From contig JAFGGO010000060.1 of the NCBI GenBank assembly GCA_016930515.1, forward strand, positions 1 through 15,768: a stretch of 15,768 nucleotides of DNA, in the 5' to 3' direction. Position 1 is the first letter of the stretch; the number at the start of each line of letters is the position of its first letter. This document shows positions 7,638 to 12,791 of the stretch, one piece after another. Origin of the DNA: Promethearchaeota archaeon (GTDB lineage: Archaea > Asgardarchaeota > Lokiarchaeia > Sigyniarchaeales > SOKP01). Made by a program: the position numbers and the translations under genes. The notes beneath the pieces were generated by a model, which saw only the letters and a program-made list of their open reading frames with translations, was not told where the DNA came from and searched no databases.

Positions 7638-7841
7638 ATGAGAGCACGAGCTTGTACGAAATGCAAAACATACGCTGTAATTCATGCTAATAATCCCGTG
7701 AGCCTGAACAGGATAAAAGCCTTCGAAAAAGTTCACTCAGGGCATTCGCTTGTTACCGTTGATTACTTCGAAATTAAAGACGAATACAAGCGATTTAACG
7801 AAAACGAGGCTCCAAGCGTGGAAAAACCAGTCGTATCCTAA
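7638..7841 (+). CDS. Small hypothetical protein, putative zinc-binding (CxxC...HxxH)
   Basis: 67 aa with CTKC and HSGH. TATA-like TTTTTATA near 7560 upstream and a pyrimidine/U-rich tract after the stop. Confidence 0.8.
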   Translation: MRARACTKCKTYAVIHANNPVSLNRIKAFEKVHSGHSLVTVDYFEIKDEYKRFNENEAPSVEKPVVS

Positions 7842-8023
7842 GTTTATCTCTTCTTTTTTATGACCTTTATCTTTTTGTTTTTAGATAATCATCTTCTTAA
7901 CATTCGATGAAATTCAAACGAAAATAGACTTTAGTTCTTCTATTGACATGTTATATATTCAAGGCAAGGACGAGTCATTTACAATTAGCAATAATCAAGG
8001 ATCCTAAAGAGCACTAGCGACTT

Positions 8024-8169
8024 TTAAGGGAGGTCCCTGCCGTCGCGACCAGGGTGCGGTCGAAATAATATAAAAAAAAGTAAGGGTGAAAATCCACGAG
8101 TTCACTCGCATTAACCAAAAGACAAAAATCCAGGGTTGACCACAGGGACCATTGTTATGATTTTTTTTT
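8024..8169. ncRNA. Candidate structured ncRNA, element 1 (multi-branched, about 120-nt core)
   Basis: GGTCCCTG (8032-8039) pairs with CAGGGACC (8143-8150), and GTC pairs with GAC. Internal hairpins: CGACC/GGTCG (8046-8062), GGGTGAA/TTCACTC (8084-8107), AACC/GGTT (8113-8137). T9 at 8161-8169. GC-rich island in AT-rich intergenic DNA with no credible ORF. Confidence 0.55.
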
Positions 8170-8463
8170 GGTTCTATTTACCTGTTAATATAAAATCTAA
8201 CTTCTAATCTTCTATAAATAAATAATTTTATAAGATACCATAAAAATGAATGTGGAATGAAAGTGAAGGAAAATTGGATTTAAAAAAAAATTATAAAAAT
8301 TAAGGATTAATAAGAGATATTTTATTTTTTAAAATCTTGTTAATTTGTATTTATCTTAAAAAATTCACAAATTATGGTTATCGTAAAAATTAATAATCAC
8401 ATATTTCATTGGTTCTAAATAGATCAAAAATAAAGTTTTAACCGTTTCTAATCCATAATCAAT

Positions 8464-8955
8464 TTAATGATTGATTAAAAAGGGTCGTTTTTTTTTCTTT
8501 AGTATGTATTGCTGATGGTATTCTTCGGCCTCCCAGAATTCGGATGCTTTGGTGATTTCAGTAACGATTGGTCTCCTGAATTTTCCCGATTGTTCCATCT
8601 TTTCCCTTGATTTTACGGCCATATTTTTTTGTTCGTCGTTCATGTAGAAAATTGCCGTTCTGTATTGACTTCCCACATCCGGTCCCTGCCGATTTGGCGT
8701 TGTTGGGTCGTGAATGTTCCAGAATAAATCCAACAGTTCGTCGTACGATACGATCGTTGGATCGAAAGTTATTTCCACAGCTTCTGCGTGTCCCGTCTTG
8801 TCGCTACAAACATCTTCGTAAGTTGGATTTGGAAAATCTCCTCCCGTATAACCTACCCGTGTAGATATTACGCCTTTTTGGCTTCGATACGCTTCTTCTT
8901 TAGACCAAAAACACCCCGCAGCAATGATCGCTTTTTCATTTTTTTTCGGTTCCAT
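8464..8955 (-). CDS. msrA: Peptide-methionine (S)-S-oxide reductase MsrA
   Basis: Motifs AAGCFW, GYTGG, PTYEDVC..TGHAEAV, HDPT..NRQGPDVGSQYRTAIF and AEEYHQQY. Confidence 0.97.
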   Translation of the reverse strand: MEPKKNEKAIIAAGCFWSKEEAYRSQKGVISTRVGYTGGDFPNPTYEDVCSDKTGHAEAVEITFDPTIVSYDELLDLFWNIHDPTTPNRQGPDVGSQYRTAIFYMNDEQKNMAVKSREKMEQSGKFRRPIVTEITKASEFWEAEEYHQQYILKKKKRPFLINH

Positions 8956-9098
8956 GTAATTAATATAAAAGATTTGACAAAAATATCTTTTCGTAATAGG
9001 ATATAAACAGAAAGATCTTTGAAAATGCTTTTAATAAGAAAATTCCGTGGTTTTTTTACAAAATATTATAAATTCAAATAATATTATTTTCAGTCAAT

Positions 9099-9140
9099 AT
9101 TATCAAATTTTTCATCAGTAAAATTATCAAATTTGATAGT
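9099..9140. promoter_or_regulatory. Candidate transcription-factor operator (direct repeat plus palindrome)
   Basis: ATTATCAAATTT at 9099-9110 and 9123-9134. The second copy overlaps the perfect 14-bp palindrome TATCAAATTTGATA (9125-9138). Confidence 0.4.
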
Positions 9141-9229
9141 AATGAAGAATGACAAGTTTAAAACGCAAGAAAGCGAAGAAATTATTTTTATTCACATTTA
9201 AAAAGCAATATACTTGACTAATTAATTGT

Positions 9230-9500
9230 GAGATTAACGAGTTCCTAATAATTTTTTGTCGTAAATTTGGATCTAAGCCTCAATAAATCGAGAGATGCAC
9301 AAAATAATCCCTAATATCGCATTATAAGGACTAAACATAATAAATAACGATAAGGACAGGAAAATTATTACTAGATGTACTATAAGGATTGAAATTATTC
9401 CGATTTTAAATTTTGATTGATCCTCGTTAATATACAGCAGTTTAGCTTTTATATCCACGATATTGGTTGGTTTATATCCAAAAAAATTACTTGTATTGAA
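9230..9500 (-). pseudogene. Decayed fragment of a multi-pass membrane protein, probably DUF4386-like
   Basis: The reading FNTSNFFGYKPTNIVDIKAKL...FSPYNAILGIILCISRFIEA*IQIYDKK continues through an in-frame TAG (9273-9275). After an apparent frameshift in the A-run near 9252 it reads Y*ELVNL. No ATG start. The family assignment is from recalled similarity only. Confidence 0.5.
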
Positions 9501-9768
9501 TTATGATTTTTAAACATTTTTTGTACTTTAAATAATCGTTCAATTTTGTCTGCATCTTGATTTCTTTAATTTTAATTGATTCCTCATCCGATAGACTCAT
9601 TTTTTTCTAGAGTATTATAGTTCTAGCATGGATAATGGTTTTCTTTTCTTTTCATCTGCTTTTATCTGTTGTTTTGATGTTTTTATTAGACTTAATTATA
9701 GTTTTTAGTTATATATTTCCATTATTATCATTTATTATCTATATTTTGCGAGTTCGATTTCCGATACA

Positions 9769-9823
9769 TTTATATACGAATATAACTATTATTAGATCAA
9801 TATATTCGATTTGTGATATATTG
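9769..9823 (+). promoter_or_regulatory. TATA box plus inverted-repeat operator upstream of the ORF-PadR-Hsp20 unit
   Basis: TTTATATA at 9769-9776. CAATATAT-N10-ATATATTG at 9798-9823 overlaps the expected transcription start. Confidence 0.6.
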
Positions 9824-9883
9824 CGAAAATGAATAAAATTGAATAAGGAATATACTAAAAAAGACTGAAAGGAGAGAGAGAAA

Positions 9884-10078
9884 TTGAATACTAAAAGCAT
9901 AATTACAACCGATAAATACCAAATTGAAGAATTATTGGAAAAATACGCCCAAGCCATCGACCTTCTAGGACTTGCGGAACTTTTACCAATCGAAGATCAC
10001 CAAAGAAAAGTAAACGAGATACGGAAATTACAAAATACCCTGAAAGATGTATCATCCATAACTATTCATCTTAAATAA
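9884..10078 (+). CDS. Small hypothetical helical protein
   Basis: 64 aa, TTG start after purine-rich AAGGAGAGAGAG. Protein-like amphipathic composition. Stop lies just before padR. Confidence 0.6.
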   Translation: MNTKSIITTDKYQIEELLEKYAQAIDLLGLAELLPIEDHQRKVNEIRKLQNTLKDVSSITIHLK

Positions 10079-10094
10079 TTTTAACGTGATTATC

Positions 10095-10745
10095 ATGTTT
10101 TTTGGAAAAAGATTCCACGGACATCAAGGAAGCGGGTTATCGGGACTGGACATTTTAGTGCTTTCCATTATCAAGAACAACCCAAAAATTTCGGGATACG
10201 AGATAAGCCTAAAAATTAATAATAATTTCAGGGGAATGTGGAAGGCATCGGCCGGTACGATTTATCCGTTATTAAATAGATTGGCAGAAAAGGGTTATCT
10301 TGACGTGGAAGAAACCGTGGATAATAATCGTCAAAAAAAGCTATATAGCGTGAGTAGTCAGGGATTGGAAAAAGTAAAAGACATGATCGAAATCAACCTG
10401 CGAAATTCCATTGATACGCTAGGAGAATACATGAAAACGGTTTTAAAAGCCGTTCCAACTAGCCTAAGCGTGGATGATTGTTTTTGCGGGTGGCCATCTC
10501 GAGAAACTCATCAAGAATCTACCCTTGACGAGGAAAATTATTCTTTAGACAATATTGAACGCCTTCAAACAGCCATACAACGATTAAAAGTGGCAAAAGA
10601 GAGATATTCAAAAAGAATAGCGCATTTGGAATCTCAAATCATTTCATACGAAAAACTTTTAGATAAATTAAAGAAAGGTCGAGAGGAAAAAGCAAGACGC
10701 ATAGAGATTCTTGATGAAGATGCGGACTTTGAAGATTTTAATTAA
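10095..10745 (+). CDS. PadR-family winged-HTH transcriptional regulator with C-terminal coiled coil
   Basis: LVLSII..SGYEI...WKASAGTIYPLLNRLAEKGYL...KKLYSVSSQG. ATG 10095 follows a GTGA SD-like motif; GTG 10086 is the alternative start. Confidence 0.92.
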   Translation: MFFGKRFHGHQGSGLSGLDILVLSIIKNNPKISGYEISLKINNNFRGMWKASAGTIYPLLNRLAEKGYLDVEETVDNNRQKKLYSVSSQGLEKVKDMIEINLRNSIDTLGEYMKTVLKAVPTSLSVDDCFCGWPSRETHQESTLDEENYSLDNIERLQTAIQRLKVAKERYSKRIAHLESQIISYEKLLDKLKKGREEKARRIEILDEDADFEDFN

Positions 10746-10833
10746 GCACAAAATTCAAGATGATGTTATTAGAAACATCTAAAAATTAAAAAAAAATCTA
10801 AAAAAAAATTGAAAACAAAAAGAGGATAAAATA

Positions 10834-11367
10834 ATGTGTGACGACAACATGTTTCACAGAAGCCCTACAGGTGCTTCAACCCACCATAAATCCTTCCATG
10901 GAAAGGCACATCATCCAGGAGGACCGATACCAGGATATTGCATCCCTCCAACAGGATTTGACATGAGGCAAATCGGTAGAATGATTCACCGTTTTGCAAG
11001 CGGAATTGCAAATAATTACGAAGGATGGGTCCCATATAACTTGGAAGATAAAGGAGATAGTTATCTTGTTCAAGTTCCGTTAGCAGGACGCACCAAGGAG
11101 GACGTTAGTGTTTCTATCATAAACAAGACATTAAATGTAGCGGCGAAGAAACCACAATCCACCGAAGCAATAGGCAATGAAGATAAAAAGGAACCCCCCT
11201 TTTTACGGACCTTTTTCTCGTTTGTTGATGTGAATCTCGACATTCCATTACCAACCGACGCAAACACGAGCGAAATTAAATCGATGATGCAAAACGGCCT
11301 GCTCAAGGTCAAGATCGGTAAAAAACCGCCCACGAACATTAACATTGACGATGAAACAAGTAATTAG
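10834..11367 (+). CDS. Hsp20/alpha-crystallin family small heat-shock protein
   Basis: PYNLED..DSYLVQVPLAGRTKEDVSV...LPTDAN...MQNGLLKVKI and a C-terminal IxI motif (INI). AGAGGA SD upstream. Confidence 0.88.
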   Translation: MCDDNMFHRSPTGASTHHKSFHGKAHHPGGPIPGYCIPPTGFDMRQIGRMIHRFASGIANNYEGWVPYNLEDKGDSYLVQVPLAGRTKEDVSVSIINKTLNVAAKKPQSTEAIGNEDKKEPPFLRTFFSFVDVNLDIPLPTDANTSEIKSMMQNGLLKVKIGKKPPTNINIDDETSN

Positions 11368-11392
11368 CTACAACCCCAATAATTAAATCAAA

Positions 11393-11482
11393 TTAAGGGA
11401 GGAGCGCTTTAGAATTCGTCGCAATTTCTCGGGAGGAGGACGCGAATAAATTCTAAAGCACACCACTTAATGTATTTTTTTT
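11393..11482. ncRNA. Candidate structured RNA or terminator hairpin, element 2, carrying two GGGAGGAG / CTCCTCCC motifs
   Basis: Perfect 11-bp stem GCTTTAGAATT (11406-11416) / AATTCTAAAGC (11449-11459), extendable to 11401-11464, with an inner CGTC/GACG pairing. GGGAGGAG at 11397-11404 and 11431-11438. T8 at 11475-11482. Confidence 0.55.
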
Positions 11483-11535
11483 CTTATTAAAAATTTTATT
11501 ATTGAATTAAAATATATCTTGTATTTATTCGTAAT

Positions 11536-12582
11536 TTAAATCTCTATCAATTCGTATTGAGTTGAACCAAGCCCTATTTTCTCTGCGTAATCAAGTTGTT
11601 TTACGCCACGGAATTTTTTTCCGTTGTTTTTAGCTAAATCGTGACAAGCTTTATCTATTGCTACGGGGTCGGTTGAGATAAGCACGCCAATATCGTCTAT
11701 CAAAAGTTTCATTTTCCTTGGCTCACAGTCGCATCCTCTCGTGATATTCATGGCAAAATTGATATAAATATTTTTTTTCCCTTTTGCTGCTGCATATGCG
11801 TACTCAACGAGATTTTCCTTGAAATTATTGCCTATTCCTATAAGTCGCATGTATCCTTTAAGCGAATTGAGCGAAATTGCCCCATGTGGACATATTGCAG
11901 CACAAGCCCCACAACCCACACATTTATCATGATCAATAAAGGACTTCTCATCTTTCTCAATGATAATCGCGTTCTCGTTGCATCTCGTTTTACAAAGGTT
12001 ACATTTTTTGCATTTTTTCTCCTTTATTTTAGGTTTAATTCCCTTGTGCATTGCAAGCTTTCCGCCTCGAGCAGCGTGTCCCATTGAAAGTTGCTTAATT
12101 GCTCCTCCAAAACCTGCTAATATATGCCCTTTAAAATGAGAAAGAACTATTAGCTGATCATAGTCGAGAAAATTCTTCCCAATCTTACAATTTTTATAAT
12201 GCTTCTTGTTGATTTCAACTTCAGCAAAAGATTCTCCATAGTCTCCATCAGCGATTATTATTGGTATCTTATTAAACCCATGTTCTTGAGCGAGTGCCAA
12301 ATGAATTTCTTTTTTATGCCTCTGTCCGTTATATAATGCGTTTGTTTCAATATAACACGTTTCGATGTTTTTTTCTTGGAGAAAATCGATTATTCCGTTA
12401 TAATTCTCAGGTTTAATATAGGTATGGTTGCCCTTTTCTCCGAAATGTACTTTTAAAGGTATTTTTTTATCTAGATCAATATTTTCTTCTAAAATAATTC
12501 TGTTTAACAGGCCTCTAGTTATCTGATTTACATCGTTAGTGCTGGTGCGTGAGTTTAATTTTTTATAATACACATTTGACAT
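11536..12582 (-). CDS. DUF362 family Fe-S protein with 2x[4Fe-4S] ferredoxin-like domain
   Basis: Motifs KVHFGEKGN, HFKGH, GFGGAIKQLSMG, CKKCNLCKTRC, CVGCGACAAICP, CDC and STDPVAIDKAC. Alternative start TTG 12594. Confidence 0.9.
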   Translation of the reverse strand: MSNVYYKKLNSRTSTNDVNQITRGLLNRIILEENIDLDKKIPLKVHFGEKGNHTYIKPENYNGIIDFLQEKNIETCYIETNALYNGQRHKKEIHLALAQEHGFNKIPIIIADGDYGESFAEVEINKKHYKNCKIGKNFLDYDQLIVLSHFKGHILAGFGGAIKQLSMGHAARGGKLAMHKGIKPKIKEKKCKKCNLCKTRCNENAIIIEKDEKSFIDHDKCVGCGACAAICPHGAISLNSLKGYMRLIGIGNNFKENLVEYAYAAAKGKKNIYINFAMNITRGCDCEPRKMKLLIDDIGVLISTDPVAIDKACHDLAKNNGKKFRGVKQLDYAEKIGLGSTQYELIEI

Positions 12583-12791
12583 CTTGATTTCCAACTCTCT
12601 TTTCGTGAGAATGATTGGTTAAATATGTGTATATATGAGCCATTACTTATATATTATATTTGGTACGCCTTTTTCTTTTTCATAAGTCAGAGATTTATTA
12701 ATCGCAACTATTGTCATGAATATTTGCTTGTTAAATCCCGAGTTAAAGTAAATATAAATAGAGATTATTGCATAATATTAGTGTACGAGAA

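Follow-up and report, generated by a model that had tools for sequence, protein, structure and literature searches.

The window analysed here is the whole stretch of 15,768 nt that forms contig JAFGGO010000060.1 (C110) of a Promethearchaeota archaeon, and the genome searched is the corresponding 4.0-Mb assembly (35% GC, 94% complete). Besides its protein-coding genes, the window carries two structured intergenic elements, hereafter E1 and E2 (Table 1), which both lie between convergent genes and which we read as two distinct small RNA (sRNA) genes. The 10-mer TTAAGGGAGG is found on the plus strand at one side of each element and overlaps the closing stem in both copies: two of its nucleotides belong to the stem and the remainder would form a 3' tail on the minus strand. 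The closing stem of E1 pairs GGTCCCTG (8032-8039) with CAGGGACC (8143-8150). In E2, GGAGCGCTTTAGAATT (11401-11416) does pair with AATTCTAAAGCACACC (11449-11464) as proposed in the initial annotation, but not perfectly, since A.A and C.A mismatches lie near the base on the plus strand. Each stem is followed on this strand by a T-run that starts 10 nt past it (T9 at 8161-8169 and T8 at 11475-11482). The 120 nt or so that the first stem was thought to enclose are in fact 103 nt, the whole element being 119 nt long. A flank common to both elements (ACCA, 13 nt and a T-run) is also present, but the similarity claimed for it is weak, with 6 of the 13 positions identical.

Table 1. Genes and elements of the window; positions are counted from its first nucleotide
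Feature	Position	Strand	Description
purS/Q/L-like open reading frames (ORFs)		+	named from length and order alone, without domain scan
PurF-like ORF		+	with the purS/Q/L-like ORFs, extends up to 7413
67-aa ORF	7638-7841	+	starts MRARACTKCK
10-mer, copy 1	8024-8033	-	last two nucleotides of stem P1 and E1 3' tail UCCCUUAA
E1 (putative sRNA gene)	8032-8150; RNA about 8150 to 8024	-	about 120 nt; closing stem P1, two or three internal hairpins, U-rich and C/U-rich linkers
E1 invariant core	8112-8134	-	CCUGGAUUUUUGUCUUUUGGUUA; 23 nt, U-rich
E1 candidate promoter	8161-8181	-	A9 run at 8161-8169 (terminator-like T9 tract on the plus strand); weak TATA-like GTAAATAG at 8174-8181
msrA	8464-8955	-	Pfam PMSR, 1.6e-65
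padR	10086-10745	+	Pfam PadR, 8.9e-14
hsp20	10834-11367	+	Pfam HSP20, 4.7e-10; 3' end abuts E2
10-mer, copy 2	11393-11402	-	last two stem nucleotides and E2 3' tail UCCCUUAA
E2 (putative sRNA gene)	11401-11464; RNA about 11464 to 11390	-	hairpin of about 65-70 nt; conserved 16-bp basal stem, variable top, pyrimidine-rich apical loop
E2 candidate promoter	11465-11493	-	TTTTTAAT(AAG) at -29..-19, A8 at -18..-11, AT-rich proximal stretch
DUF362 / 4Fe-4S gene	11536-12594	-	

E1 belongs to a multi-copy family. A BLAST search with positions 8015-8175 against 60 relatives gave matches in 35 of the 36 genomes of the same family, chiefly via a core of about 25 nt and often at several places per genome. 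The architecture deduced from 20 aligned loci comprises P1, an invariant 23-mer, one or two variable hairpins, a C/U-rich linker (GCCCUCCUCCCCCUAU in most copies), a GACC...GGUC hairpin and the 3' strand of P1. The 23-mer is identical in all 18 aligned copies and in both copies of this genome. A covariance model built from 18 copies (R1) recovers the window element at 8022-8160 on the minus strand with 106 bits. It matches 123 of the 131 genomes of one Lokiarchaeial family, one of 14 in a neighbouring family and none of the five genomes from two further families of the order. The number of copies ranges from 1 to 16 per genome, with two in the present one (C110:8022-8160 and C20:3227-3360). 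Furthermore, compensatory changes were observed among 45 distinct copies in 8 of the 9 pairs of P1, 4 of the 5 pairs of P2 and 3 of the 6 pairs of P3. None of 500 shuffles reached these values, and pairing falls to 35-49% when partners are shifted.

The genes that flank E1 differ from copy to copy, and in about half of the cases no downstream gene has the same orientation. Therefore, E1 is best viewed as a stand-alone RNA gene, and for the same reasons a riboswitch or leader was rejected. Several loci, moreover, have orthologues in other genera, and this speaks against mobility of the element. Many loci of the family (including L046-L075; 8174-8181 on the minus strand in the window) show a conserved AAAATAAAATAGG(G) box that ends, on the RNA strand, some 17-24 nt upstream of the closing stem. 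This box may be a family-specific promoter element.

E2 behaves quite differently. A search with positions 11385-11490 recovered its 3' arm and tail in other genera. Each homologue found lies directly after the hsp20 stop codon of a padR-hsp20 pair, with a variable gene on the opposite side. The covariance model of this element (R2) matches the window at 11373-11495 on the minus strand with 97 bits. It is found in 78 of the 131 family genomes, always as one copy save for one genome with two matches, and outside the Lokiarchaeial family it gave no match. E2 is arranged tail-to-tail with hsp20 in all of 36 loci. Its basal stem of 16 bp is kept in sequence (92.6% paired, two compensatory pairs) and the top of the hairpin is variable. 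The hairpin typically begins 23 nt after the hsp20 stop codon. No T-run of at least 5 separates the two in any of 31 loci, and a run of T7-12 is found 9-13 nt past the hairpin in 30 of them. Since no T-run precedes the hairpin, the 3' untranslated region (UTR) of hsp20 should cross E2 and hold its full complement. From these T-run positions, E2 is probably antisense to the hsp20 3' UTR. In the window, the A8 run upstream of E2 is, on the plus strand, the T8 that constitutes the first strong T-run after hsp20; the hsp20 terminator would thus overlap the candidate promoter of E2.

Several lines of evidence point to the strand that would be transcribed. The E1 element of the window folds with -42.4 kcal/mol on the minus strand (z -2.3) versus -38.6 on the plus strand (z -0.7), and its E2 element with -31.2 (z -6.0) versus -28.6 (z -3.9). 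In the families, the summed minimum free energies are -833 versus -719 kcal/mol for E1, the strand with the U-rich core being the better one in 19 of 20 copies, and -350 versus -260 kcal/mol for E2 (14 of 15). On this minus-type strand, P1 of E1 shows 9 G.U versus 1 A.C, and the basal stem of E2 shows 19 versus 2 among 11 sequences, or 86 versus 3 cells among 35 sequences. Furthermore, 16 of 44 E1 copies have an AAATAG-type box at -38..-15 on the RNA strand, whereas the opposite strand and a control window each yield 1 of 44. Upstream of E2, TTTAAATAAG, a run of A8-10 and TATTATTAAT are kept across genera, with a TATA-like box at -29..-22 from the stem. Taken together, the asymmetry between G.U and A.C, the stability of the folds and the promoter-like boxes make the minus strand the better reading for both RNAs. 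The initial annotation had left the strand open between two alternatives, and folding energies and wobble pairs favour the minus-strand one for both elements. Hence, we consider, with a probability of roughly 0.7, that the window carries two separate conserved sRNA genes, both on the minus strand.

Various observations weigh against this interpretation. The strand, the ends and even the transcription of E1 and E2 are deduced from sequence. The strongest T-runs, T9 and T8, lie on the plus strand just past both stems, as they would in plus-strand transcripts, and the minus-strand tails carry merely U3-5. The G.U cell counts overstate the number of independent events because the sequences are related and the conserved positions few. 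Most of the E1 promoter boxes are weak and lie in very AT-rich DNA, and the copies that match may be orthologues of one another. Two other sources were of no help here: a bacterial promoter and terminator scan of the window is uninformative for an archaeon, and the flanks of 12 tRNA genes are too heterogeneous to serve as a promoter or terminator reference.

Both putative RNAs carry motifs that recall the anti-Shine-Dalgarno (anti-SD) sequence. The organism uses Shine-Dalgarno (SD) sites, as shown by SD-like 5-mers, whose frequency has an 8-10-fold peak at -15..-11 relative to ORF starts. The 3' end of 16S rRNA, taken from a relative in the same family as the assembly itself has no 16S gene, is canonical (GGAUCACCUCCU). 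Of 45 E1 linkers, 28 contain CCUCC, and among 34 E2 interiors there are 11 with UCCC or CUCC, mostly placed in the apical loop; in both families these motifs are borne by the RNA strand, with none on the opposite strand. Moreover, both families possess a pyrimidine, C-rich tail directly after the closing stem. The suggestion that minus-strand transcripts would be C-rich, anti-SD-like RNAs thus holds for the presence of unpaired CUCC, UCCC or CCUCC in both families, but the motif is restricted to part of their members. Since both families carry such unpaired motifs, a translation-modulating role is plausible. Hence, E1 and E2 might be riboregulators whose C-rich motifs pair with SD regions, a proposal that we put forward tentatively, as possible and short of probable. 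Two points weigh against it: the E1 linker of the window lacks CCUCC, the motif being found solely in its tail, and just the above-mentioned 11 of 34 E2 orthologues have UCCC or CUCC inside. In the proposed mechanism, the unpaired C-rich motifs would pair with purine-rich SD regions, an Sm-like protein bound to the U-rich core might assist E1, and E2 would have a further, cis-acting effect on the hsp20 3' UTR. The invariant 23-nt core of E1 may be a candidate Sm or Hfq binding site. Its GGAUUUUUGU is invariant and Sm-site-like, part of the site is paired by RNAalifold and its invariance precludes a covariation test; the genome holds three LSM-domain genes.

This core can also be understood in another way. 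E1 may act mainly as a protein scaffold, either as the RNA of an Sm-ring ribonucleoprotein (RNP) resembling small nuclear RNAs (snRNAs) or U7, or as a decoy that attracts the factors binding to the 3' end of 16S rRNA; its C-rich motifs would then be protein sites. The invariant GGAUUUUUGUCUUUUGG resembles Sm sites, three LSM genes are present, and tails like GAGUCACCUUU are similar to the 3' end of 16S rRNA. However, the invariant stretch offers no covariation test and the likeness rests on short U-rich or pyrimidine strings within AT-rich DNA. We regard a predominant scaffold function as unlikely. A broader proposal, which we hold to be quite unlikely, is that E1, E2 and perhaps more sRNA families of unrelated sequence form an Hfq-like layer in Loki-type Asgard archaea. 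These families would share a C-N-C-C-Y-U-U-U-A tail next to the stem and unpaired CUCC/CCUCC seeds, would mimic the 16S anti-SD, would be loaded by Sm-like archaeal proteins (SmAP) and would silence mRNAs led by an SD site. If so, E2 would be wired to the heat-shock gene hsp20 and the frame shared by the two elements would not be coincidental but a handle common to an sRNA class that spans a whole regulon.

The T-runs raise the question of plus-strand transcripts, in which the hairpins would be 3'-UTR or terminator structures of hsp20 (E2) and of the 67-aa ORF (E1), ending at T8 and T9. The strong T-run found past the E2 hairpin in nearly all loci, the constant position of E2 after hsp20 and the T-runs that directly follow many E1 copies in this orientation are all consistent with it. 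However, the G.U:A.C asymmetry (86:3 for E2 and 9:1 for E1) and the folding energies favour the opposite strand, about half of the E1 copies lack a common co-oriented upstream gene, and CTTATTTAAA past the T-run is conserved like a TATA box of the opposite strand. Furthermore, archaeal termination requires a T-run alone, which leaves a sequence-conserved stem of 16 bp unexplained. As an account of both elements, plus-strand transcription is quite improbable in our view. For E2 the two readings can be compatible, as the hsp20 3' UTR would hold the complement of the minus-strand RNA.

That E1 and E2 form a single family with a conserved frame (TTAAGGGAGG ... ACCA, tail and T-run) and exchangeable, possibly mobile cargo, as the initial annotation had it, now deserves next to no credence. 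The exact 10-mer at the base of both stems, the T8-9 run 10 nt past each of them and the likeness of the tail profiles are what such a frame would give, and a weak R2 match overlaps the A-run side of E1. However, the models fail to cross-detect when searched with filters off: R1 on E2 gives 5.4 bits (E 6) and R2 on E1 gives 19 bits (E 0.46). The two elements belong to two conserved families that differ in architecture, copy number and genomic behaviour. Nor is the frame kept in relatives. The exact 10-mer is missing from E2 orthologues, which have, for example, ...GGCGGAGCGC or ...AATGGAGCGC in its place. Among E1 copies, it is found only in that of the window, whose nearest relative (L002) differs at one position. 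The spacing between the stem and the A-run varies from 0 to 23 nt among E1 copies and is conserved only in E2. Neither element looks like a tiny mobile element, since E2 is single-copy and syntenic and E1 has loci orthologous across genera. Elements resembling miniature inverted-repeat transposable elements (MITEs) were also rejected, as E1 copies diverge by compensatory changes and E2 is single-copy; the check did not extend to terminal inverted repeats or target-site duplications.

A search of the genome gave no support to an association between the frame and stems. Counting both strands of the assembly, the 10-mer has 11 occurrences versus about 4.8 expected from base composition. Several of the nine further copies lie 8-14 nt before ATG, GTG or TTG and are SD-like, others are within coding sequences, and no long closing stem was found beside any of the nine. 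The copies at E1 and E2 were themselves considered as the SD of a hidden small ORF, which was rejected as no start codon follows either of them at SD distance. When up to two mismatches are allowed, 3528 occurrences are obtained, and just four of them, E1 included, combine a closing stem of 8 bp with a T-run. Two of the three others were folded and gave an unconvincing structure, likewise a one-mismatch match with a stem and no T-run. A closing stem of 9 bp followed by N-CCYTT(T/A) gave 45 and 42 matches versus 28-45 when stems are offset by 11-26 nt. Other 9-bp closing stems with (N)CCCUU(U/A)A tails were observed in this genome at C142:2500-2644 (+), C87:9202-9328 (-) and C67:18954-19009 (+); these may be additional sRNA candidates or due to chance, and their class shows no overall enrichment.

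The two copies of the 10-mer can be understood from the tails. On the RNA strand, the 10-mer reads CC/UCCCUUAA, the slash marking the end of the stem, and is thus a stem end followed by a pyrimidine/U tail. The tail profiles anchored at this point are UC/UCCYUUUA for E1 (n=45) and CC/GCCUUUAA for E2 (n=35), with a looser tail C-N-C-C-Y-U-U-U-A common to both families. The chance that one E1 and one E2 member are identical at all ten positions is 2.6e-4, versus 2.3e-6 from composition, i.e. about 100 times higher. Judging from these profiles, the exact identity of the 10-mer is a coincidence within a real but loose tail resemblance. The shared consensus is probably a 3'-end signal or a contact site for a protein or for SD regions. 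A role of the CCUUU tail as a generic mRNA terminator signature found no support, as CCTTT is found downstream of convergent genes 78 times in sense versus 75 in antisense and C is not enriched before T-runs.

Neither element corresponds to a known RNA class. The entire window gave no match on either strand with Rfam 15 (E <=1), and ARAGORN found no tRNA or tmRNA gene in it. A tRNA-like fold, suggested by the ACCA ends, was rejected: no cloverleaf is formed, the ends read TCA or TCT in the E1 family and CCA is not conserved. A bacterial-type intrinsic terminator, i.e. a GC-rich hairpin with a T-run within 0-2 nt, was detected by the terminator scan at neither site; the T-runs begin 10 nt after the stems. 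Finally, E2 was considered as a Y RNA of a Ro60 RNP for its conserved base, variable top and U-rich tail; this was rejected since the 94%-complete genome has no TROVE gene and Rfam gives no match.

Known regulatory RNAs nevertheless offer points of comparison. In low-GC Gram-positive bacteria, the UCCC-motif sRNAs (RsaE/RoxS, RNAIII and the multicopy LhrC), such as those of Staphylococcus and the LhrC of Listeria, pair with G-rich SD regions by means of C-rich motifs (PMC2790875, PMC4132741). Like E1 and E2, they are small, structured and partly multi-copy, with redundant C-rich motifs that are left unpaired in loops, linkers and the vicinity of the 3' hairpin; their hosts also have AT-rich genomes that use SD sites. 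In contrast, these bacterial sRNAs share neither sequence nor fold with E1 and E2. An invariant U-rich core is found in E1 in addition, and only part of the E2 family has the motif; E1 and E2 are, moreover, known here from sequence alone. Another comparison is with the Sm-class snRNAs (U2, U7) and with the sRNAs bound by Hfq or SmAP (PMC3710371, PMC4500138). E1 would resemble the Sm-class RNAs by a putatively single-stranded, RAU5G-like U-rich site located between helices and by the three LSM-domain proteins of its host. However, it lacks snRNA-specific helices, it is confined to one Lokiarchaeial family plus one match in a neighbouring family, and its site is a candidate only.

Cis-encoded antisense sRNAs can overlap the 3' UTR of a convergent gene, for instance GadY with gadX in Escherichia coli. 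As in this pair, E2 is a small gene convergent with a stress gene (hsp20) and placed for full complementarity to the 3' UTR of its mRNA. Unlike GadY, it forms a long conserved hairpin whose base is kept in sequence, a feature that simple antisense action would not need, and the overlap is deduced from T-run positions. GC-rich structured sRNAs (HgcC/E/F/G) were reportedly described in AT-rich archaea by Klein, Misulovin and Eddy in 2002. Like these, E1 and E2 are GC-richer folded islands in AT-rich intergenic DNA, have an orphan function and were found by composition and structure. However, the Hgc sRNAs constitute different families from different lineages, and no Rfam model matches E1 or E2.

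The surroundings of the two elements call for some remarks. The 67-aa ORF gave no Pfam match and is separated from E1 by about 190 nt of non-coding DNA. The msrA gene is co-oriented with E1 and lies about 310 nt upstream of it on the minus strand; other copies of the E1 family have different neighbours. The gap between msrA and padR (8956-10085, 1.1 kb, 27% GC) holds, on both strands, ORFs that are all short (at most 72 aa) and hydrophobic or of low complexity; the two that were scanned (9273-9458 and 9884-10078) have no Pfam match. Upstream of the hsp20 start (10775-10833), long A-runs are found along with an AGAGGA SD-like site at about -14..-9. The apical loop of the window E2 (UCCUCCUCCC) is complementary to this site; its sequence varies in orthologues. 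At the scale of the genome, no 16S rRNA gene was detected in the 94%-complete assembly, and ARAGORN, run without intron settings, reports just 12 tRNAs. Stable-RNA genes of this assembly are poorly represented or non-canonical.

The literature search retrieved no description of an E1 or E2 RNA and no catalogue of Asgard small RNAs. E1 and E2 are probably conserved sRNA genes that are new to databases and belong to a general kind already known. With their strand, borders and family membership as proposed here, they provide concrete loci, and the idea of a scaffold with cargo or of a mobile element is removed. No known group is closer to the eukaryotes than the Asgard archaea. In one of the latter, the window pairs two conserved, unannotated and putative sRNA genes, one from a widespread multi-copy family with an Sm-site-like core and the other a hairpin locked to a heat-shock gene. 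If the anti-SD reading is true, the UCCC-motif sRNAs of bacteria would have in these RNAs a counterpart from archaea.

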